Below, one piece after another: positions 13,039 to 30,388 of a stretch of 64,000 nt of DNA. This DNA comes from a virus. Taxonomy: Duplodnaviria; Caudoviricetes. The stretch covers positions 64,001-128,000 of the IMG/VR virus record IMGVR_UViG_3300043642_000037, one strand, 5' to 3'. Every line of letters begins with the position of its first letter. The stretch's first letter is position 1. The notes beneath the pieces were generated by a model. That model had not been told where the DNA came from. It did not search any database and saw nothing but the letters and a program-made list of their open reading frames with translations. Position numbers and translations under genes: made by a program.

Positions 13039-13706
13039 CAGTGGAGAACCTCCGCCGTCTTGTCGACGAATTCAATCGAGGACGTCATCTCTCGATGTTT
13101 GATTTTGAGCGCGACGCTCTCGGTCATCGGCGCCCGCTTGGCGAGAACGGCGGCCTGCGCGACCGCCATCTGCTGGTGCTTGAGGGCCTCGCGCGCCACG
13201 CCGCTGTCCAGTCCGGCCTCGCGCCCCATCAACGCCTTGAAGTGCCCGTCGACCATGGCCTGCGTCTGGACGACTCCCGGGTCGATGATGACCGGCAGGC
13301 CCGACAGGTACGCGACCGCCTCGACGCCGTACATGACAGCCCAGCGAACGTACTGCGTTGATCCCACGACCGCGTCGGGCGCCTCGCTCGCCTCGCGCAC
13401 CCACTCGACCAGGTCGATGTGGTCCCGGAACACCGCGACGTCGAAGAACAGGTGACGGAAGGCCCTGATGACGTCGAAGGACAGTCGCGTCCGTCGGCTG
13501 ATCTCCTCATCGTTCGAGGTCGCGAGCAGCCACCCGCGCATGCAATCGCACGCCTTGCCCGCGCTCAGCTCGAGAGCCCTGACCACCGACTCGTCGGCTG
13601 GCTGACCCCTGCGGGACAACCACAGCGCCCGCTCGAAAGGATGCTCCGGCTGGTCGCGGGACGCGATCGCGGCAATCGCTCGATGGTCGGGGTTACGGCG
13701 TGGCAT
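13038..13706 (-). CDS. HTH-containing hypothetical protein (candidate small terminase)
   Basis: Start re-assigned to ATG 13706; HTH-like 'DEEISRRTRLSFDVIRAFRHLFFD'; function is a guess from context. Confidence 0.4.
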   Translation of the reverse strand: MPRRNPDHRAIAAIASRDQPEHPFERALWLSRRGQPADESVVRALELSAGKACDCMRGWLLATSNDEEISRRTRLSFDVIRAFRHLFFDVAVFRDHIDLVEWVREASEAPDAVVGSTQYVRWAVMYGVEAVAYLSGLPVIIDPGVVQTQAMVDGHFKALMGREAGLDSGVAREALKHQQMAVAQAAVLAKRAPMTESVALKIKHREMTSSIEFVDKTAEVLH

Positions 13707-16536
13707 AGCCCTCAGGGTCCTTCGCGCCCTGAACGCCACGCGCCAGACGAAGCACGATGTCCCCCAGGCTCTTGAACGTGGAGCCCAAGCTCTGCTCGAG
13801 AGCGTCGAACACCGACTCGCCCACGCGCTCCTTGAGATCCGACTCCTGCATCCACAACGTGAGCTGGACACGCGCGAGATTGTCGACCGCCTTCTCGAGG
13901 TTCGGCAGGTGCTGGCCGACAACCGCGTGAAGCTCCGGCGACTGCACGAGCGTCGCGACGGCGGCGACGTCGAAGATGTCCGGAGGCAGCGCGCTCGCCT
14001 GCTGAAGGAACTGCGGGTTGACCTCCGCGTCCAGCGCGTGCCCGTTGGGGCCGTCGACAGGCATCAAAGCGCCGGGCGCGGGGCCTTGTCCGCCCATCGG
14101 ACCCATGCCGGAAGCGCCCATGCCCTGATCACCCATCGGGTCGCTCATCGGGTCCGCGCCCATGGGCGGCATACCCGGATCTCCACCCATCGAAGCCGGA
14201 TCCATCGGTCCAGCACCCATGCCCGGAGCGCCGCCCATCGGGTCTGCGCCCATGCCTGGAGCGCCGCCCATCGAAGCCGGATCCATCGGTCCGGCACCCA
14301 TGCCTGGAGCACCACCCATCGGATCGCCGCCGGGCGCCCCCGGCATCCCGGGGTTCATCGGCTGGCCCGTGGCGAGGTTCGCCGATGACGGCGGCGCACC
14401 CATCATCTGGGTCTGCGTCGAGGCCGACATCGGTGCTCCACCCGCGATCTCGTGCGAGCGCTGGACAAGCGTGGCGAGCATCTGCTGCTTGTCCTGGAGC
14501 TTCTGCATCTCGGCTTGGATCGCCTGGTCCATCTCCATCGCCGCCAGCTCGACGGGCGACGGAGGGGGTGGGGCCGGAGGCGGACCCATCACGGCCTGTG
14601 CCGCGCCGGCGGCCAGGTCGGGTTCGGGGGCGGGTTCTGCGGAGGCGGGCGGCTTCCGCTTCTTTCCGCCGCCGCGGTCGCCGCTCTTGTCGCCGCCCTT
14701 GTCGCCGCCCTTGTCGTCGTCAGCAGCCAGCTTGTCGACGGCCATCTGCGCGCGCGCGACCTGCTCGGTCGACACGACCCACGCGCGGGCCGAGCCGTCT
14801 CGCGTCGCCTGGTCGAGCAGCATGCCGGCGGCCGCGACCTTGATTCCGTAGTCGGCCGCGACCTTGCGGAGAGCCTGCACGCGACCGACACCGGGACGGC
14901 CGTCGACGGAGAACTGCCGAGCCCCCGCGTCTTTGATCGACACCTTTCGCGCTCCGACCGCGGCGAGCGACGACGACACGCATCGCGCCAGGTCGTGCGC
15001 CGACTGGAACCACGCCCTCTCGTCGAGGCGCTCCCGCAACGGAATCCATATGAAGTCAGGCGGGATGTACACCACGTCCGCGCCCTTCGGCATCACGATT
15101 CCGCCGAGCGGGCTGCGCGGGTCCGTGACCAGCGTTTTTTCCTCGGTGAATCCGCGCACCGCGGTGACCCGCATGCGGCGAACGCCGTCGGCGCCGGTGG
15201 TGACCGACTTGATGTCGAGCGGGATGGTGGCCTGGAACGTCGAGCCCTTCTGGCGCACGAACAGGCCCTTGCCCGCGCGCGGCTGACCGTCGACGTCCTT
15301 GAACAAGCGCTTGTGCAGCGGGCCGGACAGCTCGTCCGCGACCGAGTCGCGACCGACCAGGCGATCCGGCTCGATGTAGTCCCCGTCGCCGAACACGGCC
15401 ACGTACTTCGAGACGTTCCACCGCCTGCGCGTGACGTAGTCGGTCTCGTCGGGCCTGCCCATCGGGTAGACCTTGTTGGCGCTGCGTCCGACGCCGCCGG
15501 GGCGACGCTCGTTGAGCAGGGGGTTGTGGCCCGCGACGGCAGGACGTCGCCCGTACTGCGTTCCCTCCCCGAGGACGTCGATCGGGTCGGAGACAACGAG
15601 CGCCGGACGCTCCTTGCCCGTGGACTCGTAGAGAACGTACACACCCGGCTGGTTCGGCTCGATCCAGCGCTCGTAGGGCTGGACCTGCACGGTCAGGTTG
15701 TGGGACGCGCGGTCGTCGCGAACCGCGTAGCCCTCGCGACGAACCCCGGCGTACGCCTCGCCCGCCTTGTCGCCGAACATGCGATGGAACTCCGACGGGG
15801 TGGTGTCCTTGTCGGCGATCCACAGCGCGCCGCCGAAGCTCTGCTTGGCGGCGACTTTCTCGAGGCCGGGGCGCAAGGCGTGCGACAGCTCCGACATGCC
15901 GTACGCGGCCGCGGCTGCCTTCAGGATGCGAGGATTGTGCGCGAGCACGTGTTGAAAGGCCGACTTGACGCGGTTGGACGCGGACCGCAGAAGAGGCAAA
16001 AGCAACTCGGGCTGCTTGTCGTCGCCCTCCTTGGTCAGGTTACTCGGCGACATGACCTGCTCGAGGTCCAGCATGGCTGACGCGTAGGAGAACCTGCCCG
16101 TGATGGGCGGCACCACGATGTTCCGTATGTCGACGTCCGTGTACAGCGTCTCGGGCGTCTTCACGCCGGTTCCCAGCGACGCCAGCCCGGCCTTGGCTAG
16201 CTCGTCCAGCCACCCCTTGTTGAGGGGGAGGAACATGTTGAGTGCCTTGTGGTACATGATGTCCAGCGGCTTGATCGCGCTGTTGGACATCACGACGGGG
16301 ACGTACAGCGACTGGCCGTGGCGCGAGACTACGAAGGCGCCCACGCCGTAGCCCTTGTCGACGTCGGTCGACAGGACCTTGAAGGTCACCACGTCCGGGA
16401 CCAGGTCCGGGACCCTCTGCGTGAGCAGCTGGTACGCCATCTCGCTCAGTCCGGACTCGAACAAGCTGGTGGCCTGGTCGGGACTTTGGCCCGTTCCTCC
16501 TTGGAGTTGCTGCATGCGCGGGCTGAGCGGGGGCAT
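13693..16536 (-). CDS. large head/core protein (947 aa) with Gly-Pro-Met low-complexity region
   Basis: RBS AAGGA; EKVAA, RKVAA, IKVAA, DKLAA; PGMG repeats near the C-terminus. Confidence 0.7.
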   Translation of the reverse strand: MPPLSPRMQQLQGGTGQSPDQATSLFESGLSEMAYQLLTQRVPDLVPDVVTFKVLSTDVDKGYGVGAFVVSRHGQSLYVPVVMSNSAIKPLDIMYHKALNMFLPLNKGWLDELAKAGLASLGTGVKTPETLYTDVDIRNIVVPPITGRFSYASAMLDLEQVMSPSNLTKEGDDKQPELLLPLLRSASNRVKSAFQHVLAHNPRILKAAAAAYGMSELSHALRPGLEKVAAKQSFGGALWIADKDTTPSEFHRMFGDKAGEAYAGVRREGYAVRDDRASHNLTVQVQPYERWIEPNQPGVYVLYESTGKERPALVVSDPIDVLGEGTQYGRRPAVAGHNPLLNERRPGGVGRSANKVYPMGRPDETDYVTRRRWNVSKYVAVFGDGDYIEPDRLVGRDSVADELSGPLHKRLFKDVDGQPRAGKGLFVRQKGSTFQATIPLDIKSVTTGADGVRRMRVTAVRGFTEEKTLVTDPRSPLGGIVMPKGADVVYIPPDFIWIPLRERLDERAWFQSAHDLARCVSSSLAAVGARKVSIKDAGARQFSVDGRPGVGRVQALRKVAADYGIKVAAAGMLLDQATRDGSARAWVVSTEQVARAQMAVDKLAADDDKGGDKGGDKSGDRGGGKKRKPPASAEPAPEPDLAAGAAQAVMGPPPAPPPPSPVELAAMEMDQAIQAEMQKLQDKQQMLATLVQRSHEIAGGAPMSASTQTQMMGAPPSSANLATGQPMNPGMPGAPGGDPMGGAPGMGAGPMDPASMGGAPGMGADPMGGAPGMGAGPMDPASMGGDPGMPPMGADPMSDPMGDQGMGASGMGPMGGQGPAPGALMPVDGPNGHALDAEVNPQFLQQASALPPDIFDVAAVATLVQSPELHAVVGQHLPNLEKAVDNLARVQLTLWMQESDLKERVGESVFDALEQSLGSTFKSLGDIVLRLARGVQGAKDPEGYATP
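14090..14360 (-). repeat. coding repeats GAPGMGAGPMDPASMGG (x2) and GADPM-type units
   Basis: DNA repeat cccatcgaagccggatccatcggtcc at about 14186 and 14267. Confidence 0.8.
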
Positions 16537-18124: not shown

Positions 18125-18153
18125 ATGATAGGTCAGATCGTCGGTTATCCCAA
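18125..18153 (-). promoter_or_regulatory. sigma70-type promoter TTGGGA-N17-TATCAT
   Basis: 17-nt spacer; CC precedes the -10; upstream of the RBS for 18088. Confidence 0.6.
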
Positions 18154-18558: not shown

Positions 18559-19130
18559 GGAAGGTCCTGTCTGGGAGTGGTCCCCAACACGTGGTCCAGC
18601 CCGCGCCCGACGACGTGACCGAGGCCCCTGCCGACCCCGAGACCGATTGGGGTTCCAATCATGCCGCCGGCGGTGCCGCCGTACATCATGCCGGCAAGGC
18701 CGCCCACGCCGCCGAGGAGACGCGACATTCGGCCCTCCGAGGCGTCCTGGCGCATCATGCTCGGCAGCGCCGCGGCGGTCAGCAGGGTGCCCGCGCGTCC
18801 GGCGGCCTGCATGAATGGCCGGCCGGGCATCGAGGGCCACAGGACGTTGCGCCAGTGGAGAGAGCCGCCGGGTGCGAACGTCCTGGCGCCCTCGACGAAG
18901 GCGTTGGGTCCCTGCCCGAAGGCGACGAGCTTGGCGGTGCCGGCCGCGGAGTCGACGAGGCCCTGGCCCAGGTAGGCCAGCTTGGCGGCGCGAACCCCCT
19001 CGGTGAGGGCCTGCACGATTGTCGACAGCTCCGTCGAAGGTTTTGCATGTTGGTGCGGCCGATGTCCGTGTCTTGCGAAGTGTTCGCGCATGGTGTCGAC
19101 GGAGTACCCTGGGTCGTTCGGACCGAACAC
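18555..19130 (-). CDS. glycine-zipper head/ejection protein candidate
   Basis: C-terminal 'LLGGVGGLAGMMYGGTAGGMIGTPIGLGVGRGLGHVVG'; AKLA; exact start uncertain. Confidence 0.55.
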   Translation of the reverse strand: MFGPNDPGYSVDTMREHFARHGHRPHQHAKPSTELSTIVQALTEGVRAAKLAYLGQGLVDSAAGTAKLVAFGQGPNAFVEGARTFAPGGSLHWRNVLWPSMPGRPFMQAAGRAGTLLTAAALPSMMRQDASEGRMSRLLGGVGGLAGMMYGGTAGGMIGTPIGLGVGRGLGHVVGRGLDHVLGTTPRQDLP

Positions 19131-20908
19131 TAGTACCTTCCTTCCGGGCCCTGCCCGAACTCGGTTCCGGCGGCGTACGCCGGAACGGGCGAGTAGCCGT
19201 GAACGTCGGCGTGGTCGCCGCGGTGGGCGCCGGCCAGCAGGCTCTCCTTCAGGTACCGGTGACCAAGACGCGCCATCCAGTCTGGGTTCAGCAACGGGGT
19301 TCTCGACGCGGGCCGCATGAGCGGGGCCGCCATCGGAGCGTTGTCCGCCACGTTCACCTCGTGAACCCCGCGACGCGCGAGCACGCTTGCGACGTCGGGC
19401 GTCACCCGGGTTCCGGCGGTGAAGTGGAACGCGTCCTGCGCGAGCGTCTCGCCCGCTGCCTCGGCCAGGCCGACACGCCTGTGGGACGCGGCGAGCGCGG
19501 CGCGGAACCTGTTGTAGTCGATCACGTCGCCCTTCATGAAGGCGTCGTCCGGCCCCGGATCGATGATCTGGACGTGGGACAGCACGCTTCTCGCGAGCGT
19601 CTCGAGGTGGCGCTTGTCGACGTCCGCGCCGGCGCGCCGGTACACGTCGTGAAGAGCGTCGACCAGGTAGCGCCTGCCCTCGCCGAGCCCCTTGTGACGG
19701 ACGATCTCGTCGGGACGAGGCACGCCGTCCGACAGCGTGTCGCCGGCGAACAACGGCTGGCCTACGGCCACCGTCACCCGCTGGTCCGGCGGGACGTAGT
19801 GGCGCGACCCCTCGACGGTGACGTAGGCGCCTCCCTGTGGGGCGGGCTCGACGATCCCGACCTTGCCGTCCCTGTCCGCGAGCACGGCCTTGTGGAGGAA
19901 TGAGGTCGGTATCTCGAGGAGCTGGCGGACCCCCTTTATCCCCTCGAGCTGCTTCTTGTCGGTCGCGGCCGCAGCGACGCGGCCGCCGTGCTTGGCGTTC
20001 AGGCTGAACTGGGTCAACGGCTCACTGAGCGCCTGCGCCGCGCGCATGCCGACGTTGGTGCCCAGCACGTGCGGGTGTCCCGAGGGGTCGAGACCCTGGC
20101 AGCGCTGGCAGATGCCGTGCGGCGCCTCGCAGGTCATCGGCGATCGGACTGTGACGGGGTCCCCCTTCGCCGCGATTGACGATGCGAGCCCAGGAGTCAC
20201 CAGACGACCGTCGGTCAGGTAGCGATCGATCAGGTGCGGATCGGCCGCGGCCATCTCGATCCCGTTCCGCGTGCCGCAGTCGAGGGTCGTGATGAGCTTG
20301 TCGCCCATATTGTTGACGAGGATCTTCGCCAGGTCCCCCGGCTCGACGACCGAGATGTTCGACCTCACCGCGTTGACTCGAGCCTCGCCGCCCGCGACCC
20401 AGGCGTCGGCGGGCGTCAGGCCCTCGGAGAAGCTCTTCTTGATCAACCAGGGCACCGTTCGGTCCCTGGAGTCCCTGGCCAGGACCGGAGAGCCGACCGC
20501 GCGCATGAGCTGGGCCGCGTTGCCGCGTCCGCCCGACCTCACCATCTCCCCCATCGCCCCCTTGTCGCGCTTGGCGAGCGAGAGCATCGCGTCCTGCGCC
20601 GCGAACAAGGCCTTCTCCCTGTCCGCGTGCGTCCTCGCCGCGTGGAAGGCGTCAACGTGCGGCGCCAGCATGGCGTCCCGCTCCGGGTGCGGCGCGATGT
20701 CGTCGAGCCCGACCGAGATGCCCTCCAGCGTCGCGACCTCGTCGCCGAGCCGCTTGAGCCTGGTGACGACCTCGGGATACGCGGAGGGATCGGACTTCGC
20801 CAGGCGAACCAGGCTGTCGTTGAGCACGCCCTTGGTCAGGGCCTGGTCGTCGTGTCGCCAGCCCTTCGGCAGCACCGCGTCGACGAGATGTTGTCCCAGC
20901 GTTCGCAT
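19130..20908 (-). CDS. rpoC: DNA-directed RNA polymerase, beta' C-terminal subunit
   Basis: 'SGGRGN', 'SFSEGL', bridge helix 'EAR...EPGDL', Zn site DCGT/RSPMTC/ICQRC, trigger loop 'AAQALSEPLTQFSLNAKH'; start re-assigned to ATG 20908. Confidence 0.93.
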   Translation of the reverse strand: MRTLGQHLVDAVLPKGWRHDDQALTKGVLNDSLVRLAKSDPSAYPEVVTRLKRLGDEVATLEGISVGLDDIAPHPERDAMLAPHVDAFHAARTHADREKALFAAQDAMLSLAKRDKGAMGEMVRSGGRGNAAQLMRAVGSPVLARDSRDRTVPWLIKKSFSEGLTPADAWVAGGEARVNAVRSNISVVEPGDLAKILVNNMGDKLITTLDCGTRNGIEMAAADPHLIDRYLTDGRLVTPGLASSIAAKGDPVTVRSPMTCEAPHGICQRCQGLDPSGHPHVLGTNVGMRAAQALSEPLTQFSLNAKHGGRVAAAATDKKQLEGIKGVRQLLEIPTSFLHKAVLADRDGKVGIVEPAPQGGAYVTVEGSRHYVPPDQRVTVAVGQPLFAGDTLSDGVPRPDEIVRHKGLGEGRRYLVDALHDVYRRAGADVDKRHLETLARSVLSHVQIIDPGPDDAFMKGDVIDYNRFRAALAASHRRVGLAEAAGETLAQDAFHFTAGTRVTPDVASVLARRGVHEVNVADNAPMAAPLMRPASRTPLLNPDWMARLGHRYLKESLLAGAHRGDHADVHGYSPVPAYAAGTEFGQGPEGRY

Positions 20909-20909
20909 G

Positions 20910-21323
20910 TCACATCGACGGCGGGTAGCCCGGGGGCGATCCATAGCCCTGCTGGGCCATCATGGCTCGACGTCGCGCCTGCTCATCCTGCTCCTGGTTG
21001 CGTCGGTGCCACATGTACAACCCGCCGGCGGCGAGCGTCGGCGCGAGCTTGCCCGCGTTTCCGATGGCCTGCTGTCGGTGAGTCGCGCGCGCGAGGTCCA
21101 TGCTCTGCGGTGGCACGGCCCCTGTGATCAGGGTGGGGTTCATCTGTCCGCCCAGGCCGCCTCGCAGGTTGCGAAACAGGTCCTTGGCCGCGCCGGCCTG
21201 ACCCGCGCCGAACGTCTTCAGCTTGTCGAGGATGCCGGCCGGCGCGACGTCGGCCATCTTGAACCTCGCCAGGGCGTGTCGGACGCCCGCATGCGCAAAC
21301 GGGGTGACGTGTGTCGTCGACAT
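20910..21323 (-). CDS. small head/core protein between the RNAP genes (137 aa)
   Basis: ATG overlaps the upstream TGA; 'AGVRHALARFKMA' motif; hydrophobic 'LAPTLAAGGLYMW'. Confidence 0.6.
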   Translation of the reverse strand: MSTTHVTPFAHAGVRHALARFKMADVAPAGILDKLKTFGAGQAGAAKDLFRNLRGGLGGQMNPTLITGAVPPQSMDLARATHRQQAIGNAGKLAPTLAAGGLYMWHRRNQEQDEQARRRAMMAQQGYGSPPGYPPSM

Positions 21324-21790
21324 CAGACGCCTCCAAACGCGGATGGGCCGACGCCCGATCGGCCGCCGGCGTCGCCCGCGGCCGTGCTGCTGGGCGGACC
21401 CCAGTTGGTCGATCGATCGAGCGGGTTCTTGGCCGCGACGGGCGCCCCCGGCTGCGGCGGCTCGTCGAGCGCCTGGAGCATTCGAGCCAGGTCCTCCGAC
21501 GATCGTCGATCGCCGTACTCGTTCGCCTTCTTGGCGTGGCCCTTCGCCGCCACCGTCTTGCCCGCCGCGTCGAACCCGTGAAAGGTCCGATCCGGGATCT
21601 TGAGCCGAAGCTCCTCCCCCGCGCGCTTGAGGCCGAAGCGCTCCAGCGCGGCGATCGCGCCGGACGCTCTCGCGTGCTTGACGTGCTCGGGCAACGTCAC
21701 GTCCTTGGGCGTGTGGTCCGCGAACTCCCGTGCCACCTCCGGGTGGTTGGCCCAGAGGTACTTTCGTTGCGCGTCGGATCGGAAGGGCAC
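21323..21790 (-). CDS. small head/core protein with PF(K/R)S-x-AQR N-terminal domain
   Basis: GTG 21790 gives 'PFRSDAQRKYLWANHPEVAREFADHTP'; 'SGAIAALERFGLKRA' motif; -10 box 9 nt upstream. Confidence 0.6.
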   Translation of the reverse strand: MPFRSDAQRKYLWANHPEVAREFADHTPKDVTLPEHVKHARASGAIAALERFGLKRAGEELRLKIPDRTFHGFDAAGKTVAAKGHAKKANEYGDRRSSEDLARMLQALDEPPQPGAPVAAKNPLDRSTNWGPPSSTAAGDAGGRSGVGPSAFGGV

Positions 21791-21799
21791 GGCACCCCA

Positions 21800-21807
21800 A
21801 GTATAGG
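21800..21807 (-). promoter_or_regulatory. -10 element CCTATACT, probable leaderless transcript
   Basis: Same CCTATACTT as at 50242-50250; 9 nt from the start codon. Confidence 0.6.
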
Positions 21808-21810
21808 CCG

Positions 21811-24800
21811 TCACTCGCCGATGTGGATATGGTCGTTCAGGGCAACCTCTCCGCGGTGATACGCGGCGCGGGCGTCCTGCAGGGACGCGAACCTCTTCGC
21901 CGTTCGACCGGAGGCCGGCTGGGTGGCCCTGTGGAGACCGAGCACGGCCTCCATGTCGGGCGCGACGTTGAGCATGCCCGGCCTTCGATCCGCGAAGATC
22001 TGGTGCGAGAGCGTCATCCGCTTGACGTCCTCCACGCCCGCGGGTGTCACCGGGGCGTGGATCTGCATCGCGTCGCCATCGTAATCCGCGTTGGTCCCTC
22101 GCTCAGCGAAGGGGTTGAGTGTGATCGTCTTGCCTTCGGTCATCCTTGGGTAAGCGCCGATGATGTTGTGGCGGGTCAACGAGGGCGCACGGTTGACCAT
22201 GACCGGGCGCTCTCGTGTCTCGTTGATCAACTCGTCTTTGGCGATCGGCGCTTTGTCCTCGACCAGCTTTTGCGCGTCGATAGCCGAGTAACCCCGCCGT
22301 ACGAGCCGTCCAATTACGAACTTGGAATACATGCCCCAGAGCATGTCGGTGGGTACGCCGATCTCATCCATGGATAGCGTGGGGTCTGGCGCGATGGTCG
22401 CGCGTCCGCTGACGTCCTGCTGGCGCTTCATGAGCTTCGATTGGAAGAACCCTGAGCCAGGCCGGCTTCCGGTGATCGTTGCGATGTATCCCTTGGCACC
22501 TCGGCGCAGCACCCCGGGGCTAACGGGGTCACCGACGCCGAACAACGCGCTGACAGCGTCGAACAGGTGTCTGCGCGGCGCGTGAAGCTCGGATTCCGGT
22601 AGGACCTTCGTCGAGTCCTTGAGCTGGTCGTTTGCCAGGAACGCGTCGCGGTACAGCAGGTTCGCGTCGCCGACCTGGAGCCTGCCGTCCTTGAGGGGAA
22701 GGATCGGTCGAATGATCGGCGGCGTGACAGGGACCTTGCTGATCACGTAGGCATCCGCGGGCTTCAATCCGTGCGCCTGGAGGGCCGCCAGGTACTTCGC
22801 CTGCTTGACCGCGTCGTCGAGCGCCGCGCCGCGCAGGTGCCTGGATCGATCGCGCAGCTCCTCGAGACGGGACGGCACGTCGATGCGGCCCAGCTCGCTG
22901 CGAAACCACTCTCCGCCGCGGCCGGTTCTCTCCGCGAACTCCTTCTGGGTCAGGCCGAGGAGCCGGCGCACGGGCTCCTCGAACACGGGGTTGACGATCG
23001 ACTCGGACAGCTCGACGTGCGACCACTTGGTGCCGGCCATTCCGCCGGTCCTCGCGGGGTCGAACATCCCGCCGGTCTCCGGGCGCAGGTCCTTGGCTCG
23101 AATCATCTTGCTCGGGTCGGGCAGCTCGCCGGAGGACATCTTCAGGATGTCCGCGTCGGTGAGCGGCCCTAGGGCCAGCCTCGAGCCCGCCTTGGAGATC
23201 TTGACGCCGGCGCCCGAGAGCATCGCGTGCAGCTTGTCGTACGCGAACGGCGTGCGCGGGGCGGGCGCGGGGGTGCCGAGCTGCACCGAGCGCCAGAACT
23301 CGTCGTTGCGCTGGCTCTTGATCGCCGCGGACTCGCGGAGCACGGCCCTCGCGTTGTGCGCGACGAGACCGTCGAACTCCATCTTGCCGATGCCCTTGGC
23401 GCCGTCGTCGCCGCCTCGCGCGGGCTGCTGGTTGTAGTCGTAGCGCTCGGCGCCGTGCGCCGCCCAGTTGCTGTCGGTCGTCTTGAAGAGCTTGAGGAAG
23501 TACGACTTGCCGACGAACACGCCCGGCACGCTCTTGCCCGTCATCGGGTCGACCACCGTCTCCTTGTCCGACAGGCCGTTGCTCTTGAGCAGGCCCTTGG
23601 CGTATGCGACGGCGTCCCGCGCGGCGAACTGCGGGACGAGAATGGGCTCGCCCCGGTGGTCGGCGACCTTGCCGAGCGACGCCTCGACCAGCTGCGCGGG
23701 GTTGATGCGCGTGATGATGCCGGCGCTGGTGAGGATGACGTCGACCGGGCGTCCCTTCTCGTCATGAATCATTTGTGCATCTGGGATTATTTTGGCGACT
23801 ACGCCTTTTGCGCCAAACCTGTTCGAGATCTTGTCGCCGACCTGCAGGGTCTCCTGCGTCTTGACCGTGGCGCTGTGGCGCTCGCCGGTCTTCGAGACGT
23901 CCGTCACGACTCCGGGGTGGTCGTGGGTCCACGTCTCGACGATTTCGGCGTAGGGACGAACGAGCGACTTGGAGAGCTTCCCCAGGAGCGCCGCGTCGCC
24001 CGTCGCCGTCTCGGGCCTCACGCCGATGATGATCGGGTCGCCCTTCTGCAGGACGGTGCCAGGCCGGGCGACGCCGCTCTCGTCGAGCGCGTCGTACTGC
24101 CGGGCGGAGTAGCGCCCGCCGAAGTACGCCCGATGCTTCTCCCTGCTGGTCTCGACGTCGCCCGCCTTGCTGAGCACGTGATGGAACATGTGCTCGGACG
24201 TGAGCTTGTCCGCCGCGCCTTGGCTGACCACGATCCCGTCGTTGGTGTTCAGGCCTCGGTACGGCATGTACGCGACGCGCAGGTTCGTCCCCAGCGCCAG
24301 CACACCGTCCCTGGTGAAGTTGGACTCGGCGAGCGGCTGTCCCTCGCGCACCAGGTCCCCCTCCTTCACCGTCAGCTTGTTGTTGAGGTAGGTCTTGGCC
24401 GCGAGCGGGAAGTCGTGATCGTAGTGCAGTCGAAGGGGGCCGTCAGCGGCGTGCTTCTCGCCGCCCGGAACGAAGTGAATGTAGTCGGCGTCGATCTTGT
24501 CGATGCGGCCGGCCGACGGCGCGGTCGGCACGATGAGTCGAACCATCTCGCGCTCGACCGACATTCCAGGATTCCAGGACTCGACCTGCACCAGAGGCGC
24601 CTCGCGATGCGTCAGAGGGAGCGCCTGGCCCTGGTGCTTGGACGCCATCAGGGCGCGGTTTCCCTGCATGCCGTTGAGGAGGGGAAGGAGGTTGGTCGTC
24701 GCGCCGTACATGTCCGACGCGTGCCGCACCTGGTGCGTCACCTCGGACGACGCGACGCGCTGCACGGATCCGTCCTTCATCACGTCGACGATTCGTCCCG

Positions 24801-26187
24801 CGCCGAGGTCGCCCCCGGGGAACGCGACCACGGCCCTCGCCATGTCCGCGGCCTTGAGGTACTCGTCCTTACCCGTCCGGACGTTTCGCACCGGCGCGTA
24901 CAGGTTGCCGTGATCGTCTCGTCTCGTGCCCACGCCGACGCGCAGGTCCACGCCGACCTTGAAGGACTCGGGCACGCGCGTGGGATCGATGATGCCGAGA
25001 TGCGTGGGATGGACGTCCCGCGCCTCGAGGGGAATGGCGCGCTCGGACGCGATCGCACCCTCGCCCAGCAGGGTGACGCGCGACGCCTCGTCGATAAGCT
25101 CCATCGGGTTTATCTGCATCGGGACCGCCGACAACGAGCTTGTCGTCAGGAACCCGGTGACGGCCCGCGTGAGAGGCGCGGCAGGCAGGGCGTCCTTGAT
25201 CGAGCCGCGGCTGGCGTCCAGCTTCCAGCCCAGCTTGTTGCGCATGGCCCGGGCGTTCAGCTGCAGGCGCTCCTTGACGAAGTCGTCCACCGAGTGGAAC
25301 GTCTTGAACGCGAGGCTGTCGCGGTCGTCCACGTCCGCGGCCTTGCGATGAATCTCGAGGATCTTGTTCGACGCGGCGAGCATCGCCTGTCCCGACGCCT
25401 TGTCGAACGGCGCGCCGAGCGTCACGCGGTTGACCTCCGGGTCCATCGACGTCGCGTCGAGGTACTCGCGAATGGCTCCGACGCGGGCCTCGGGCGTCGC
25501 GTGGTTCCGCTTGGCCGGGTGGATCAGGGCCTCGTAGAGACGCCCGACGTGGGCGTCAGGCGATCGAAAGGCGTCGCGATTGACGGCCGCGACCTGCGAT
25601 CCCCAGCTTCGAACGATGTCCGGATGCGGGACGTCGAGGGCGCGAAGGACCGGGTAGAGCGCGACGCGGGCGGTCGTGTGCCCCGGCTGCATGTACAGCA
25701 GGCCCTTCTCGGGCTCCATCATGACCTTGAAGTTCGCGCCCTTCGACAGGTTGAAGGCGGCCTCCAGCTCCTCGTTGCCCCGTCGCCTGACGTAGACGCC
25801 CGGCTTGGTCCGGAGCTGGTTGGACACCGAGTACTCGGTGCCGTCGAGAATGAACGTGTGGCGCGGTGTGAAGTAGGGAAGGTGGAGCAGCGTGAATCCC
25901 TGCGCGCGACTGGTCACCGCGCCCTGGGCGTCGCGCACGGTCAGGTCGCCGCGGACGCGCTCGGACAGCGTCTTTCCCTCGAGGATGGCCACCTTCTGCT
26001 CGCGCGACGAGAACTCGCGCGGCTCGACCCTGGCGTCGGCCAGCTCGACCGTCCACTTGCCCGCCTTCATGGGGAAGGCCCTGCCGAGCCCCTGAATGGC
26101 CGCCTGGCGGATCTTCTCCCGGCGCGTGGCGCTGTCCTCGAGGACCGGCCTTAGAACCGGCTGCGTTTTGGTAGAAGCATCCGTCAT
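21811..26187 (-). CDS. rpoB: DNA-directed RNA polymerase, beta subunit fused to the catalytic N-terminal half of beta'
   Basis: Beta motifs 'GNRALMASKHQGQA', 'GDKISNRFGAKG', 'GKMEFDGL'; beta' motifs 'VSGRATI', 'NRAPSL', catalytic 'NADYDGD'. Confidence 0.95.
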   Translation of the reverse strand: MTDASTKTQPVLRPVLEDSATRREKIRQAAIQGLGRAFPMKAGKWTVELADARVEPREFSSREQKVAILEGKTLSERVRGDLTVRDAQGAVTSRAQGFTLLHLPYFTPRHTFILDGTEYSVSNQLRTKPGVYVRRRGNEELEAAFNLSKGANFKVMMEPEKGLLYMQPGHTTARVALYPVLRALDVPHPDIVRSWGSQVAAVNRDAFRSPDAHVGRLYEALIHPAKRNHATPEARVGAIREYLDATSMDPEVNRVTLGAPFDKASGQAMLAASNKILEIHRKAADVDDRDSLAFKTFHSVDDFVKERLQLNARAMRNKLGWKLDASRGSIKDALPAAPLTRAVTGFLTTSSLSAVPMQINPMELIDEASRVTLLGEGAIASERAIPLEARDVHPTHLGIIDPTRVPESFKVGVDLRVGVGTRRDDHGNLYAPVRNVRTGKDEYLKAADMARAVVAFPGGDLGAGRIVDVMKDGSVQRVASSEVTHQVRHASDMYGATTNLLPLLNGMQGNRALMASKHQGQALPLTHREAPLVQVESWNPGMSVEREMVRLIVPTAPSAGRIDKIDADYIHFVPGGEKHAADGPLRLHYDHDFPLAAKTYLNNKLTVKEGDLVREGQPLAESNFTRDGVLALGTNLRVAYMPYRGLNTNDGIVVSQGAADKLTSEHMFHHVLSKAGDVETSREKHRAYFGGRYSARQYDALDESGVARPGTVLQKGDPIIIGVRPETATGDAALLGKLSKSLVRPYAEIVETWTHDHPGVVTDVSKTGERHSATVKTQETLQVGDKISNRFGAKGVVAKIIPDAQMIHDEKGRPVDVILTSAGIITRINPAQLVEASLGKVADHRGEPILVPQFAARDAVAYAKGLLKSNGLSDKETVVDPMTGKSVPGVFVGKSYFLKLFKTTDSNWAAHGAERYDYNQQPARGGDDGAKGIGKMEFDGLVAHNARAVLRESAAIKSQRNDEFWRSVQLGTPAPAPRTPFAYDKLHAMLSGAGVKISKAGSRLALGPLTDADILKMSSGELPDPSKMIRAKDLRPETGGMFDPARTGGMAGTKWSHVELSESIVNPVFEEPVRRLLGLTQKEFAERTGRGGEWFRSELGRIDVPSRLEELRDRSRHLRGAALDDAVKQAKYLAALQAHGLKPADAYVISKVPVTPPIIRPILPLKDGRLQVGDANLLYRDAFLANDQLKDSTKVLPESELHAPRRHLFDAVSALFGVGDPVSPGVLRRGAKGYIATITGSRPGSGFFQSKLMKRQQDVSGRATIAPDPTLSMDEIGVPTDMLWGMYSKFVIGRLVRRGYSAIDAQKLVEDKAPIAKDELINETRERPVMVNRAPSLTRHNIIGAYPRMTEGKTITLNPFAERGTNADYDGDAMQIHAPVTPAGVEDVKRMTLSHQIFADRRPGMLNVAPDMEAVLGLHRATQPASGRTAKRFASLQDARAAYHRGEVALNDHIHIGE

Positions 26188-26552
26188 GGGATCCTGAATG
26201 GCCTGATCTCGGCCTCCTCCGCGCCCCCGCCGCCACCCGCTGCGGGCTGCGGACGCTGAGCCGGCGCGTCAGTGAAGTAGGACAGGATGATCACGACTTC
26301 GCCCTCCTTGGTGAAGGTTCGATCCTCGAATCGGATCTTGCCGCGCCCGGCCCACAGCTCGTTGCAAAGCTCGTCGTACGCTCCGATGTCGCGCGGCAGG
26401 TTGAACACCTGGGTCGTCTGCCGGATCGGCAGGCGCGGGCCCTGCGCCAGGGCCTGCTGCGGAATGCCGAAGGGGCTCGCGATCGGGCTCTGCGTCATCT
26501 GGTTGGCCTGATCGATCACGTCCTGAAAGCCGCCCGGATTTGGCTTGTTCAT
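26184..26552 (-). CDS. hypothetical protein between portal and RNAP
   Basis: AGGA RBS; ATGA overlap with the RNAP start. Confidence 0.65.
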   Translation of the reverse strand: MNKPNPGGFQDVIDQANQMTQSPIASPFGIPQQALAQGPRLPIRQTTQVFNLPRDIGAYDELCNELWAGRGKIRFEDRTFTKEGEVVIILSYFTDAPAQRPQPAAGGGGGAEEAEIRPFRIP

Positions 26553-26556
26553 GCCG

Positions 26557-28353
26557 CTATCCTATCTGACCCGAGGCGCCGACGCCGTCCATGTCGGCCC
26601 CGCCCGCGGTCGGATCCTGTCCGGTCCGCGCCACGCTGATCGCGGCGCGGTTCTGCTGGTTGACCGCGTTCTCCATCCGCTCCTTGATCAGCGCGTACAT
26701 CGGCAGGTCGGTGGTCTGGAGCTGGTGCATCTGCGACTGGCGGGTGCCCTGGTCGAGCGGCATGAGCTGCTCCACGACGCTGTCGGCCTGGGCGATCATC
26801 TGCTGCGGATCGTAGGCGGCGCCCTGCTGGCCGAGCTGTGCCTGCGCGCGGACGCGGGCGCCAAGCTCGGTCTGGCGCTTCTGCATCTCGACCTGCGTCT
26901 CCGCGGCCATGCGCGCGTCGTCGAGCATCTCCTGCTTCCGCTTCTTGCGCTCCTCGATCGGGTCGACGTTGAACGGCTTGCCCATCGTGGTCTTGGAGAT
27001 CCAGGGGCCGCCCTGGGGATCCGCCATGTTGAGCTGCATCAGCAGCGCCTTCTGCTGGACGTCGTCGATGAACCTGAACGGCGCAAGCTCGGTCGGCATC
27101 GGTCCCCAGCCGAGCTTGCGGCCCGCGTTGTCGGTGATCCACTGCAGGAAGTCGTTGAGGTCGCCGGTCTGGTGGACGAGCTGGTTCTCCAGGACGCGGA
27201 GCTGGATGCCCGAGCCCATCGCGGAGAACCCGCCGTAGATGAACTCCTTGGGCAGGCCCATGGCCGCGATGATGTTGTCCTCGGCGGCCTGAACCTCGCC
27301 CAGCGTCATGAGGGCGCGCGCCTGGCCGCCGAGGTGCGTGACCTCCGCGGGGACCGGGGACCACATGATGTGCAGCGGGTCGCGGCGCCAGCGCTTGACC
27401 GAGTGCTTCATCTCGTTGGTCCAGGTCGCCAGGTTCATCGACAGGAGCGGGTCGGCGTTGCCGGTCGACTGCTTCGGGCTGACGATGCGAAGCGGCACGA
27501 TGTAGTCCAGCGCGATCGCCTCGTTGGCCTTGCGCAAGACCGCGGCGTAGAAAAACAACTTAATGGTCGACGCCAGCGGCGGGAAGCCCCACTGGGCCTC
27601 GATGCCCGCGGGCGCGTCCATCTTCATGTGGAAGACCTGGTTCTCCGCGAACTTGAAGATCTTGTCGTCCCTCATCGCCTTGAGGAACTCCATGGGCAGG
27701 CTGTCGATCAGGTGCTTGTTGTTCTTGGCGACCCGCTCCTTCATCTCCTTGGGGATCGTCCAGAAGTACTCGCTGTGCCCGGTGATCGGGTTGTAGTCGA
27801 TGTCGACCAGCTTGGGGTCCCACCGGATGATCGCGATCTTGTCGGGGCGCGTGATCGGCTTGTCGACGACCGCGTCGGGGCCGACGTCGACCTTGGTCCG
27901 GCACGACGCGCACTCGTAGCTGAACGAGAGCTTCTTGAGGCGGAACTTGTAGCTGACCGATCCGGCGTTGGACAGTTGGCGGCACGCCGGGCACCGCAGG
28001 AACCGCACGAACGGCGAGTACATCGAGTAGAAGGCGTTGCCGTAGACGAACTTGTCGATGGCCGCCTTGATCAGCCAGCGCTTGGTCTTGAGCTTCTTGT
28101 TGTGCAGGTCCTCGTACTTGGACTTGAGCCCCTCGTTGGTCGTGTCGTACACGATGTCGGTGATGGGGTACGTGCAGAACTTCTGCAGCGCGGCGAATAT
28201 CTGGCTGCAGTTGAAGTAGAGGTATTCGCACAGCCTGAAGAGGTCCTTCAGCTTCCTCGGCGCGAACGCCGTGAGGAAGTCGAACAACGGCGACCCGTGG
28301 CTCGACACGTTGTGGAAGGAGAGATCTGCGGCACCGGGATCGCTGTCCAGCAT
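26557..28353 (-). CDS. portal protein with Zn-ribbon insertion
   Basis: 'DKFVYGNAFYS', 'WGFPPL', 'IIAAMGLPKEFIYGG'; CPAC...CASC insert; Q-rich C-terminus; first gene of the head operon; start ATG 28353. Confidence 0.8.
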   Translation of the reverse strand: MLDSDPGAADLSFHNVSSHGSPLFDFLTAFAPRKLKDLFRLCEYLYFNCSQIFAALQKFCTYPITDIVYDTTNEGLKSKYEDLHNKKLKTKRWLIKAAIDKFVYGNAFYSMYSPFVRFLRCPACRQLSNAGSVSYKFRLKKLSFSYECASCRTKVDVGPDAVVDKPITRPDKIAIIRWDPKLVDIDYNPITGHSEYFWTIPKEMKERVAKNNKHLIDSLPMEFLKAMRDDKIFKFAENQVFHMKMDAPAGIEAQWGFPPLASTIKLFFYAAVLRKANEAIALDYIVPLRIVSPKQSTGNADPLLSMNLATWTNEMKHSVKRWRRDPLHIMWSPVPAEVTHLGGQARALMTLGEVQAAEDNIIAAMGLPKEFIYGGFSAMGSGIQLRVLENQLVHQTGDLNDFLQWITDNAGRKLGWGPMPTELAPFRFIDDVQQKALLMQLNMADPQGGPWISKTTMGKPFNVDPIEERKKRKQEMLDDARMAAETQVEMQKRQTELGARVRAQAQLGQQGAAYDPQQMIAQADSVVEQLMPLDQGTRQSQMHQLQTTDLPMYALIKERMENAVNQQNRAAISVARTGQDPTAGGADMDGVGASGQIG

Positions 28354-28426
28354 GGGGATGTTTATCCTATAAACTTTGTAGACATTGCCGCGCGCGTCGT
28401 GTAACGGTGCGCAGGAGGTTTTCCGC

Positions 28427-30388
28427 GTGAACCTTGAGATTCGAGTCGGCGCCGCGGGCAACGGGACGCCCGTGTTCATGGCGACCGGAAGCCACCCGGC
28501 GCTGGGTCGCCCGTTCGGGGCGGTCTACGACTCCGGTCGTCGGCTCTGGATGTACCCGGCGTTCTACCCGGCCTCGAAGAAGGTGCTGGCCGACCTGGAC
28601 GTGATGTCCAAGGACTTCCACGTCACGTTCTCCGATGTCGCGCGGCGCCACGTTGGGGATCTCGAGCACGTCGAGGAGAGTGTAGCGAATCGAGCGCTCC
28701 CCGTGGGGTTCGAGTACGTGACGCGGCCCTACGATCACCAGGTCCTGGGGCTGTGCCACGCGTGGTGGATGCTTCGTGCCGCGGTGTTCTTCGACCCGGG
28801 GCTGGGGAAGTCCAAGATCGCGGTCGACCTCATCCGGCTGATGCGGCACGTCGGCCGGCGCGGCACGGTCCTCGTCCTTGGCCCCCTGGTCACCGTGACC
28901 AACTGGGGTCGGGAGATCGACCGGCACTCCGGCGGCCAGCTCCGGTGGGTGATCCTTCACGGGTCCCCGGACGAGCGCGCGGACATCCTGTCCTCGATCG
29001 TGGAGTCGCCGCCGGACGTCGTGCTTCTCACGTACGACGTGGCCCGCGTGATGTCCGTCGACCTCGTGCGACGGGTGCCGTACGAGGCGATCATATGCGA
29101 CGAGTCCCATCTGGTGAAGTCGTGGGACTCGGGTAGGACGGTCGCGACCTACGACATCGCGCAGAAGGCGTCCCGGCGGGTCCTGATGACGGGGTCCCCG
29201 ACGCAGGGAGACCCGCGGGACACGTACGGCCAGTACAAGATCCTCGGCGACTGCTTCATGCCGGAGGACTACGCGCGGTTCAAGCGCCAGTTCCTGGTGA
29301 CGCCGAGCCCGCGGTCCCACGCGGTCACCGGGTTCAAGAACCTGGACGTGCTGAACGGTCGGGTGACGTTCCTGTCGCTGCGCAAGACGAAGGAGGAGTG
29401 CCTCGATCTCCCGGAGCAGGTTGTCGTGGACGTCCCCTACTCGCTGTCCAGGACGCAGAAGGTGCTGCACAACCAGCTCGTCGAGCAGATGGAGGTCGAT
29501 CCCGACGTCCTCGCGATCCTCATGTTCGGGCGACAGGCGACGCTCCCGCCGGCGTCCCGCATGCCGCATCGCGCGGCCATGCTGCTCAAGCTGCTGCAGA
29601 TCGCGTCCGGGTTCCTCATCACCAACCCGATCGACGACGCGTTCTGCGACCAGGCCGAGCCGGGCGGCTGCCGGTACCTCGAGGCCTGCGTGGAGGCCCG
29701 GGTTCGCCCGCACACGCCGCGCTGCCTGGTCGACTCGTCGCGACTTCCCGACGTGCTCACGACGTTCGACGAGAACCCCAAGCTCGACGCGACGGAGGAA
29801 CTGCTCGAAACAATCCTGGTCAACCCGACCAACAAGGCGATCATCTGGTGCACGTTCGAGAACGAGCTGAATATCGTGTCCGCCATGCTCGACCGCCGAG
29901 GGTGGGGCCACGTCCGCGTCGACGGGTCCAACAGCCGGGAGGCCCAGGACCTCATCGATCAGTTCACCGTCGACAACGGGCTCCGCGTGTACCTGGCGCA
30001 GGTGTCGACCGGCGTCGGCGTGACGATCAACGCGGCGTCATACATGATCTACTTCGCGCTCCCGTTCTCGCTGATCGTCTACGAGCAGTCCAAGGATCGA
30101 AACTACCGGATCGGGCAGACGCGGAAGGCCACGGTGTATAGGATGCAGGGCGAGGGGACGCCTGAGCCGGCGATCGCGCGCCTTCTCGACGTCAAGATCG
30201 ACGTCGACGACGCGCTCACGCGGCGCACCGACTGCCTGCGCTGCGAGCACAATCCCACGTGCATTCCGGCGGGCGTTCACCCGTTCGACGCCGGGTGCTC
30301 CGTGTACAAGAGAAACATTGACAGACCGGTCACGCGAGCCCGCTCGTTCGAGGGGGCCGACGCGCCGGACGAGACGGAGGAACCTTGA
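28427..30388 (+). CDS. SNF2-family helicase
   Basis: 'DPGLGKS', 'DESH', 'MTGSP', 'QSKDRNYRIGQ'; RBS AGGAGG before GTG 28427. Confidence 0.9.
   Translation: MNLEIRVGAAGNGTPVFMATGSHPALGRPFGAVYDSGRRLWMYPAFYPASKKVLADLDVMSKDFHVTFSDVARRHVGDLEHVEESVANRALPVGFEYVTRPYDHQVLGLCHAWWMLRAAVFFDPGLGKSKIAVDLIRLMRHVGRRGTVLVLGPLVTVTNWGREIDRHSGGQLRWVILHGSPDERADILSSIVESPPDVVLLTYDVARVMSVDLVRRVPYEAIICDESHLVKSWDSGRTVATYDIAQKASRRVLMTGSPTQGDPRDTYGQYKILGDCFMPEDYARFKRQFLVTPSPRSHAVTGFKNLDVLNGRVTFLSLRKTKEECLDLPEQVVVDVPYSLSRTQKVLHNQLVEQMEVDPDVLAILMFGRQATLPPASRMPHRAAMLLKLLQIASGFLITNPIDDAFCDQAEPGGCRYLEACVEARVRPHTPRCLVDSSRLPDVLTTFDENPKLDATEELLETILVNPTNKAIIWCTFENELNIVSAMLDRRGWGHVRVDGSNSREAQDLIDQFTVDNGLRVYLAQVSTGVGVTINAASYMIYFALPFSLIVYEQSKDRNYRIGQTRKATVYRMQGEGTPEPAIARLLDVKIDVDDALTRRTDCLRCEHNPTCIPAGVHPFDAGCSVYKRNIDRPVTRARSFEGADAPDETEEP

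Follow-up and report, generated by a model that had tools for sequence, protein, structure and literature searches.

A probable phage-owned multisubunit RNA polymerase, derived from a beta-beta' fusion and encoded behind the portal gene of a tailed phage

The stretch of DNA studied here, in the following termed the window, comprises 64,000 nucleotides of a virus from soil (Duplodnaviria; Caudoviricetes), uncultured and with a genome of about 185 kb, and corresponds to positions 64,001 to 128,000, i.e., the middle 64 kb, of the 156,126-bp IMG/VR record IMGVR_UViG_3300043642_000037, which has a G+C content of about 66% and is estimated to be 84% complete. Two genes on its minus strand, located behind the gene for the portal protein, probably specify the catalytic core of a multisubunit RNA polymerase of the bacterial type, owned by the phage, that belongs to a distinct and very diverse family and would operate by the mechanism set out below. 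In the older form of this family, beta and beta' constitute one polypeptide of about 2050 residues, and in the clade that includes the window, Salmonella phage Arash and Vibrio phages D69 and D181 the fusion gene has been interrupted once, about 86 residues past the catalytic motif NADYDGD (E. coli beta' ~552-572). A preliminary description of the window had recognized an enzyme of two chains; it missed that the family at large is defined by the complete single-chain beta::beta' fusion, of which the two-chain state is a derived interruption.

The assignment of both chains is well founded on Pfam models. The 1458-residue product of the larger gene (21811..26187, minus strand), a beta::beta'N fusion, matches Rpb2_3, Rpb2_6 (E 2.1e-42), Rpb1_1 and Rpb1_2 (E 1.1e-19), while the 592-residue product of the smaller gene (19130..20908, minus strand), termed beta'C, matches Rpb1_5 (E 9.4e-17). 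In agreement with the preliminary description, both halves of the active site reside on the fusion chain. The motif GDKISNRFGAKG at residue 784 represents the double-psi barrel of beta with the conserved G-D-K...G-x-K-G lysine motif and lies in the beta moiety (23197..26187, minus strand; approximately residues 1-997). NADYDGD at residue 1366 corresponds to the aspartate triad of the catalytic NADFDGD motif of beta' and lies in the beta' N-terminal moiety (21811..23163, minus strand; approximately residues 1009-1458). When compared with sequences in PDB by phmmer, residues 100-990 of the beta moiety matched residues 103-1047 of cyanobacterial beta (E 7.5e-59), the best match in that database, with beta from Thermus, E. 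coli, mycobacteria and Bacillus scoring slightly below, and fusion residues 1088-1456 aligned with residues 176-560 of beta'. In a local alignment with Salmonella RpoB the beta moiety stops only about five residues short of the C-terminus of that protein. It is followed by a linker of about ten residues, the beta' part starts at RpoC residue ~24, and the chain ends at about beta' residue 551 in the RpoC alignment, 86 residues past the catalytic motif. The third-codon-position GC of the fusion gene, read in frame, amounts to 0.89, a value typical of coding sequence in a GC-rich genome such as this.

The fusion chain does not contain a single cysteine. The beta' N-terminal zinc site, formed by four cysteines in the bacterial enzyme, is therefore absent, as had been noted before, and the corresponding loop is deleted between ...FDPARTGG (GGMFDPARTGG begins at residue 1039) and ...WSHVEL. 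The bridge helix, the trigger loop and a C-terminal part of the clamp are found on the separate beta'C chain, which matches PDB beta' chains with E 1.4e-40 (phmmer) and aligns from bacterial beta' residue ~573/661 to the end, its residue 3 standing opposite residue 573 of E. coli-type beta'. The trigger loop reads FSLNAKH opposite LTMRTFH, just as the preliminary description had it; it carries no insertion and retains the histidine. Exactly four cysteines are present in beta'C (C211, C260, C267 and C270) and these are placed like those of the second zinc site of the bacterial-type core. An alternative reading of 604 residues would start 36 nt upstream; the ATG at 20908, yielding the 592 residues given in the preliminary description, is favored because the chain has 592-593 residues in relatives and because the counterpart from phage Arash, gp216, aligns from residue 15 (29% identity over the full length from there, E 3e-81).

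Among 50,697 phage records, tblastn with the fusion protein found full-length matches only in Salmonella phage Arash (35% identity) and in the Vibrio phages D69, D148 and D181 (33-34%), all other matches being bacterial rpoBC contaminants or distant phage enzymes. Arash gp206 and gp216 (OQ632216) and the corresponding proteins of the Vibrio phages share the division into a beta::beta'N chain of ~1450-1525 residues and a beta'C chain of ~600 residues, with full-length identities of 33-35%; the GenBank labels read just 'subunit beta' for the Arash genes and 'hypothetical protein' for those from the Vibrio phages. Arash and the Vibrio phages infect Enterobacteria and Vibrio, respectively, and their genomes are AT-richer than that of the window. 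A far larger number of relatives stems from metagenomes. A word-indexed search returned at least 120 clusters with 57-95% identity and the same Pfam set on contigs of up to 197 kb. In addition, an exhaustive HMMER search was performed in which residues 860-1458, spanning the beta/beta' junction, served as the query and 1.84 billion cluster representatives (50% identity) as the target. The best 150 representatives all had E<=1e-111, and the family thus encompasses at least 150 clusters; counts at looser thresholds also take in ordinary bacterial beta'. In 185,579 species genomes (one genome per species) no relative of the fusion protein was found.

When the best 150 hits were classed by BLAST against both window chains, 69 proved to be of the split type and 41 to be complete single-chain beta::beta' fusions of about 2050 residues, while the rest were fragments. 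In the complete fusions the match to beta'C, beginning at its residue 15, lies within about five residues of the point where the match to the fusion chain ends (~1457). As these alignments abut, the two chains of the window together correspond to a protein that many relatives make in one piece. Four full fusions of 2032-2448 residues, located on phage-like contigs, contain Rpb2_3, Rpb2_6 and Rpb1_1 to Rpb1_5 in this order. Three genomic features that characterize the split clade are present in the window: beta and beta'N in one open reading frame (ORF) that ends shortly past the barrel, a separate gene for beta'C of about 600 residues and a position directly downstream of the portal gene.

To place the family, two trees were calculated. 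The first was derived from beta plus beta'N (53 rows, 1463 columns; LG+C20 with posterior mean site frequencies (PMSF); IQ-TREE with the Shimodaira-Hasegawa-like approximate likelihood ratio test (SH-aLRT)) and included 13 bacteria (Proteobacteria, a Firmicute and an Acidobacterium). The phiKZ and AR9 enzymes were left out of this concatenated tree because their Pfam matches are too weak (PF00562 for beta with E 1e-7 to 3e-22, PF00623 for beta' with 5e-4 or no match). The fused family, the bacteria and the enzymes of phages YerA41 and Carin-5, the latter on a very long branch, were each recovered with a support of 100. The 18 rows of the split type, the window and Arash among them, formed one clade (support 99) nested among full fusions, and the full fusions P0220 and P0231 branched outside a node supported with 99. 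FastTree, applied to the same columns, recovered the split clade with 0.999 and a node excluding a basal full fusion with 0.989. In the second tree, based on beta' only (45 rows) and sampling eight or more bacterial phyla (Bacteroidota, Planctomycetota, Firmicutes, Synergistota, Acidobacteriota, Proteobacteria and small-genome bacteria among them), the family (100) was separate from the bacterial clade (99), with the window and Arash together (95). The phylogeny called for in the preliminary description thus yields a clade of its own that unites the window with Arash and many metagenomic proteins and is not of the phiKZ/AR9 type. With the root outside the family and the split type nested among full fusions, the full fusion appears as the older form and the split as an event that occurred once and is therefore derived, a polarity suggested by branch supports from two methods.

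The split may have come about when foreign genes inserted themselves into the gene for the fusion. This is suggested because the alignment ends abut in the full fusions, because the content of the gap between the two chains varies, with one gene, two genes or, in Arash, ten genes, and because a parallel exists in Vibrio phages D181 and D148. In these two phages (OZ196140, 3980-9494, for D181), a gene for a free-standing homing endonuclease of 205 residues and two tiny ORFs interrupt the fusion gene at window residue ~505-511, resulting in ORFs of 514 and 1006 residues; the gene of the sister phage D69 is intact.

Many members of the family carry additional domains. A GNAT acetyltransferase domain (PF00583/PF13508) is inserted in the fusion chain near window residue ~575-580 in P0060, P0062, P0072, P0074, P0077, P0081 and P0103 and in the beta'C chain of P0277 and P0278. 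Inteins of the LAGLIDADG/Hint type occur in P0100, P0259, P0287-P0289 and P0293, and other members contain inserts of ~350-700 residues. P0367, a distantly matching protein of 2081 residues on a 36.7-kb Logan contig, combines Rpb2_3/6/7, Rpb1_2-5 and the alpha insert domain PF01000 in one chain according to precomputed Pfam matches; it could be a different polymerase fusion or an artefact of assembly or gene calling. The short beta' proteins P0364 and P0307 were considered as mReC-like candidates and discarded, being cellular by context (rpoB, rpoC, rpsL/rpsG; or dnaG, rpoD).

The polymerase genes are part of an uninterrupted series of minus-strand genes that runs from 28479 downwards without gaps, stops and starts overlapping or abutting. 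It begins with the portal gene (26557..28479, minus strand), a 640-residue ORF whose product is 31% identical to the Arash portal gp204 (BLASTP, E 2e-84); an internal start is probable because the portals of relatives are called at 591 residues. Between portal and polymerase lies a small gene for 122 residues (26184..26552, minus strand) without any Pfam or PHROG match. It is weakly conserved, relatives at the same position being 29-44% identical, and Arash gp205 (92 residues) is its positional analogue with no detectable similarity. The fusion gene is followed by smA (21323..21814, minus strand; 163 residues from GTG 21814, with the frame assigned by codon-position GC), smB (20910..21323, minus strand; 137 residues, identified by frame, start and the ribosome-binding site GGAGG) and the beta'C gene. 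A GTGA overlap is present at the junction of the fusion gene and smA, the ATG of the beta'C gene is located one base past the smB stop, and the polymerase genes are translationally coupled. An internal promoter between the subunit genes, as stated in the preliminary description, is not supported: a single sigma-70-like match (21827-21800, 9/12) compares with 0.5 +/- 0.7 matches in shuffled sequences, i.e., it is at chance level, and the genes overlap or abut. Nor did Rfam indicate an intron or structured RNA in the region 18900-28700 (no match at E<=0.1).

This arrangement is widespread within the family. One and the same gene order, consisting of an SNF2 helicase gene on the opposite strand, portal gene, small gene, fusion gene, smA, smB, beta'C gene and the same downstream genes, is shared by 26 IMG/VR loci and two NCBI metagenome contigs, and independent gene calls in relatives gave 591, 123-126, 1461-1577, 151-156, 132-135 and 592-593 residues from portal to beta'C. 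The portal gene directly precedes the polymerase in at least 20 related loci, in Vibrio phage D181 and in the full-fusion relative L126, in which a gene for a portal homologue (30% identity, E 7e-85) stands immediately before a full-fusion gene of 2064 residues. The succession of portal, small gene, fusion, one or more small genes and beta'C likewise occurs in Arash and in the Vibrio phages D69 and D181. In Arash, gp204, gp205 and gp206 (1525 residues) are separated from gp216 (606 residues) by ten genes, some of them on the opposite strand, whereas the window has two small co-oriented genes at this place. When Arash proteins were used as tblastn queries on the record, portal, polymerase, the homologues of gp218, gp219, gp220 and gp222 (all four detected in Arash virions) and the major capsid protein proved to be collinear, and the same structural block is shared with the Vibrio phages. 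As far as gene order goes, the preliminary description was thus right to place the polymerase in the head operon, next to the portal gene.

Downstream of the polymerase, the 947-residue product of a gene at 13693..16536 (minus strand) is homologous in its N-terminus to the virion-detected Arash gp218 (tblastn, 31% identity, E 5e-11 / 9e-16), and no tblastn match among phages was found for the gene at 16751-18088 (445 residues). The block that contains the polymerase genes is closed by the gene for the major capsid protein (4586..5530, minus strand), for which no Pfam match was found and which was identified via Arash gp226, annotated as major capsid protein (tblastn, 37% identity over 306 residues, E 2e-62, window 5506-4610). 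The terminase of the record matches PF05876 (GpA_ATPase) and is thus of the GpA type. At 7660-10527 (minus strand) an ORF of 955 residues harbors an intein (Hint plus LAGLIDADG) that interrupts a homologue of the virion-detected Arash gp222, the flanks of which match at 10440-10000 and 8946-8680.

The two small genes between the subunit genes are real; their designation as K-x-A genes in the preliminary description is not borne out, as K-x-A is no more frequent in their products or in the two polymerase chains than in shuffled sequences (shuffle p >= 0.17). Ten homologues of smA at the same position are 42-79% identical and start with M-P-F-[KR]-S-E-A-Q-R-R, which corresponds to GTG 21790 (155 residues) and not to GTG 21814. 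A C-terminal W-G-x-P...G-D motif is kept in distant relatives and also in those relatives at 48% identity that possess only one gene in the gap. For smB, eleven homologues (27-81% identity) were found, with an N-terminal helix motif ...G-x3-A-L-A-R-F-K-M, a glycine-rich middle part and a hydrophobic C-terminal segment. Both are conserved, helical-to-disordered small proteins with no Pfam match at E<=1 and protein-atlas scores <0.8; an AlphaFold2 model of smA based on ten homologues is unreliable (predicted local distance difference test (pLDDT) 51, predicted template modeling score (pTM) 0.21). A helix motif G-x3-A-[LA]-x-R-[FY]-[GK] is common to smA, smB and a frame at 18145-18840 (minus strand) just downstream. 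Its instances in these three small ORFs flanking beta'C are ASGAIAALERFGL, HAGVRHALARFKM and EAGKAAALARYKM, and homologues of smA and smB have retained it. The smA product is a candidate accessory or virion protein, and for both proteins roles as polymerase subunit, packaging adaptor or unrelated head protein are possible.

Genes for the remaining subunits of a bacterial core, the alpha dimer and omega, were not found in the phage genomes. At E<=10, neither alpha domain (PF01000, PF01193) was detected in the record, in Arash, in a relative that is 94% complete or in two relatives whose genomes are complete and bear terminal repeats (184,915 and 187,862 bp), while 14 out of 14 control genomes were positive; omega (PF01192) likewise gave no match at this threshold in the 156-kb record. 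The absence of both genes, originally stated for the window, thus extends to the whole record. Each of these five genomes contains one Rpb2_6 locus. T7-type polymerase (PF00940) gave zero matches, as it did in the control genomes too. In contrast to alpha, a sigma factor is encoded: the gene at 34558..35439 (minus strand) specifies a sigma-70-family protein of 293 residues with regions 2 and 4 (Sigma70_r4, E 1.9e-12; Sigma70_r2, E 2.5e-6) that has counterparts in the relatives G001-G003 (43-52% identity) and, less similar, in Arash (30%, E 3e-12) and is likely to be the promoter-specificity subunit of the polymerase. A second sigma-like gene, which the scan with Pfam Sigma70_r2 missed, is located outside the window on the minus strand (record 132543-133232) and encodes a homologue of Arash Gp10 (33%, E 6e-31).

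Information on a virion location comes from phage Arash, for which 116 proteins were identified in particles by mass spectrometry (PMC10585845). With 128 peptides and 3516 spectra, Gp206 ranks highest of all these proteins, above the major capsid protein; Gp216 is represented by 40 peptides and 1210 spectra, the sigma factor Gp10 by 24 peptides and 467 spectra, gp218 by 36 peptides and 1149 spectra, and the portal by 877 spectra (PMC10585845). These counts translate into 2.3 and 2.0 spectra per residue for Gp206 and Gp216, respectively, vs. 1.5 for the portal. Near-equal values are as expected for a 1:1 complex of both chains.

Based on these data the following mechanism is proposed. The two chains would reassemble non-covalently into one core in a manner similar to the split beta' of cyanobacteria and plastids, and the covalent link between beta and beta' would take over the assembly role that the alpha dimer has in bacteria. 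The enzyme would be made alongside the head proteins, late expression being suggested by the position of the genes, packed into the capsid and ejected together with the DNA. Packaging and ejection are inferred because Arash particles abundantly contain both chains and a sigma factor; for the phage of the window, packaging would follow by analogy with an enzyme of 35% identity. Once injected, the enzyme and the packaged sigma factor would start early transcription from phage promoters without host polymerase. Newly made copies, together with the second sigma factor, probably transcribe later genes, since this is the sole phage polymerase. Generalized to the family, whose members would be phages of ~180-200 kb where complete, this amounts to a self-contained, sigma-dependent single-chain polymerase that does not need alpha or omega, is packaged in the capsid beside the portal and is injected as a ready holoenzyme, a proposal that we put forward tentatively and rate at somewhat less than an even chance. 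Alpha independence in particular is suggested by the lack of alpha genes, including in the two complete relatives.

A number of points weigh against this interpretation and partly lend weight to other explanations. The record is incomplete, the support for this phage is based on sequence, the polarity from fusion to split depends on rooting with bacteria and other phages, and the exchange of arginine for asparagine at the position of E. coli R933 in the trigger loop could alter catalysis. It is conceivable, though rather unlikely, that the polymerase is a non-virion enzyme serving middle and late genes, that early genes are transcribed by host polymerase redirected by phage sigma factors, and that the signal in Arash particles represents carry-over. 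The sigma factors of other large phages indeed work with the host polymerase (PMC7824862, PMC13282480). The 116 proteins of the 'structural proteome' of Arash include many clearly non-structural enzymes, ribonucleotide reductases and helicases among them, the sections of the report drawn on here mention no purification by cesium chloride (CsCl), polyethylene glycol (PEG) or gradients, and its authors themselves state that abundant enzymes might be carried over (PMC10585845); given such a list and no purification step mentioned there, carry-over of an abundant cytoplasmic enzyme is possible. Furthermore, the helix motif of the neighboring small ORFs is missing from both polymerase chains in a motif scan, so that no capsid-targeting signal is evident on the polymerase. 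On the other hand, Gp206 was detected more often than any other particle protein including the capsid protein, its chain is nearly equal to Gp216 per residue, and adjacency to the portal gene within the structural block has been kept down to 30-35% identity, including the full-fusion lineage.

About as unlikely is a hybrid enzyme that combines the phage chains with host alpha (and omega) and is not self-sufficient. The absence of alpha genes is compatible with the use of host alpha, and the beta and beta' moieties are near full-length versions of the bacterial subunits, with ~30% identity and an alignment over nearly the whole of beta. Moreover, the natural beta-beta' fusions of some bacteria still use alpha. 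Dependence on host alpha would be awkward for an enzyme that is injected and acts immediately, and the phiKZ and AR9 enzymes are active without alpha. In the same sections of the Arash report alpha is not named among the particle proteins, with the limit that host proteins were possibly not searched for (PMC10585845). We consider it improbable to a still higher degree that the enzyme belongs to a lineage already described, either the phiKZ/AR9 type or mReC of Weinheimer and Aylward 2020. It resembles mReC enzymes in being readily aligned with cellular beta and beta' and in branching outside bacteria, and phiKZ/AR9 enzymes in having beta' cut after the catalytic barrel. However, the phiKZ/AR9 subunits barely match those Pfam models that are strongly matched by the fusion chain, beta is split there, two sets exist and sigma is lacking; mReC phages have separate genes for beta and beta', a T4-type capsid protein and a PF03237 terminase instead of PF05876, and stem from other metagenomes. 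Hardly credible, finally, is the recent capture of an rpoB-rpoC segment from a host, with the segment now decaying or lacking a function of its own. While the order beta before beta' is that of the bacterial rpoBC operon, the sequences are not nested in any sampled bacterial phylum, no catalytic motif is damaged, the reading frame shows the third-codon-position GC bias given above (0.89) and is open, its conservation extending over at least 150 clusters (50% identity), and no relative was found in the species genomes. We retain as the probable explanation a phage-owned core with the proposed mechanism.

Compared with known systems, the window's enzyme shares a number of traits with each of several groups. 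Like phiKZ and AR9 enzymes it is a two-barrel phage polymerase without alpha and omega with beta' cut after the barrel, and in those phages one set is packaged. However, the phiKZ/AR9 phages have beta split into two or three unfused polypeptides, two paralogous sets (virion and non-virion), very divergent sequences and promoter recognition of the gp68/gp226 type without a sigma-70-family factor, whereas the window's phage has an uninterrupted beta fused to beta', one set, sequences far closer to bacterial ones and a sigma factor with regions 2 and 4 plus the Gp10-like protein. The mReC enzymes likewise stem from uncultured tailed phages, many of 100-300 kb, and have beta and beta' sequences that are alignable with cellular ones and placed outside Bacteria (PMC7481178). 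In mReC, beta of 1000-1400 and beta' of 900-1300 residues are encoded by separate adjacent genes (PMC7481178, Supplementary Data 2), together with a T4-type major capsid protein (PF07068) and a terminase of PF03237/VOG01069 (PMC7481178). Judged by these listed genes and families, the fused ORF and PF05876 would set the window's family apart from mReC, and none of the metagenome identifiers of the related loci appears in the mReC contig list as stored (PMC7481178).

In phages YerA41 and Carin-5 (145-155 kb) genes for beta, beta' (split in YerA41) and sigma occur as well; in these phages, beta' precedes beta, both are unfused and lie in a replication module, the catalytic motif reads NLDYDGD and the branch is separate and very long. 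Both barrels on one packaged chain that is injected for early transcription are known from gp66 of the crAss-like phage phi14:2 and from Thermus phage P23-45, where the chain is fused to the tape measure protein. These enzymes are minimal and extremely divergent, with only the barrels recognizable, in contrast to essentially whole bacterial beta and beta' in the window. The split beta' of cyanobacteria and plastids (gamma/RpoC1 and RpoC2) is likewise divided at a point past the catalytic barrel and ahead of the bridge-helix module. The cut in the window is located roughly 30-50 residues before the cyanobacterial gamma/beta' boundary and there is no trigger-loop insertion; as the family is not nested in bacteria, the split has an origin independent of cyanobacteria. 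Fusions of rpoB and rpoC occur naturally in Helicobacter and Wolbachia, and an engineered beta-beta' tether exists in E. coli; these have a short linker and operon order in common with the phage protein. The bacterial fusions are cellular, work with alpha2 and omega and have an intact zinc finger, whereas in the phage family, a clade of its own, some 20 residues at the start of beta' and the zinc-finger loop are missing. 'Moraphages' do not have polymerase genes (PMC12619734) and PaBG has sigma only (PMC7412058). A literature search, in which subscription journals were thinly covered, yielded no described bacterial-type phage polymerase with fused beta::beta', no split form of it and no pairing of such an enzyme with sigma in the absence of alpha. 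The window thus represents a new member of an undescribed phage polymerase family, the genes of which are public but under-annotated.

Close relatives of the locus are not restricted to one sample. Contigs that are 90-99% identical over 19130-28479 are present in soil and freshwater-sediment metagenomes of several studies, and most of the differences fall on third codon positions, the pattern that related strains should show. Short contigs of 95-99% identity from one soil metatranscriptome library cover the portal gene, the fusion gene, the smB/beta'C junction and the beta'C gene; coming from an RNA library, they fall short of proof of transcription, hint at expression weakly at best and are silent on its timing. 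Elsewhere in the window, a gene at 41179-44187 (plus strand) encodes a family A DNA polymerase of 1002 residues with an N-terminal domain of the uracil-DNA-glycosylase superfamily and a 3'-5' exonuclease; a similar fusion has been described in another group of jumbo phages (PMC7412058).

The family adds a fourth form of phage multisubunit polymerase to the fragmented sigma-less enzymes of the phiKZ/AR9 type, the unfused mReC enzymes and the minimal single-chain two-barrel enzymes. It offers a test of whether a tether between beta and beta' can replace alpha as assembly platform, and, for structural studies and synthetic biology, a bacterial-type polymerase of compact size. The direction of change, i.e., fusion followed by a split through inserted genes, can be read from the tree and bears on the origin of subunit boundaries in cyanobacteria, plastids, archaea and phages. 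As Arash and the Vibrio phages are in culture, the predictions can be tested at once. If the proposal for the family is true, a single chain still works although inserted genes have divided it and, in D181, a homing endonuclease has done so a second time; the enzyme would then be the simplest near-complete bacterial-type polymerase known and a natural experiment on the origin of subunit boundaries.

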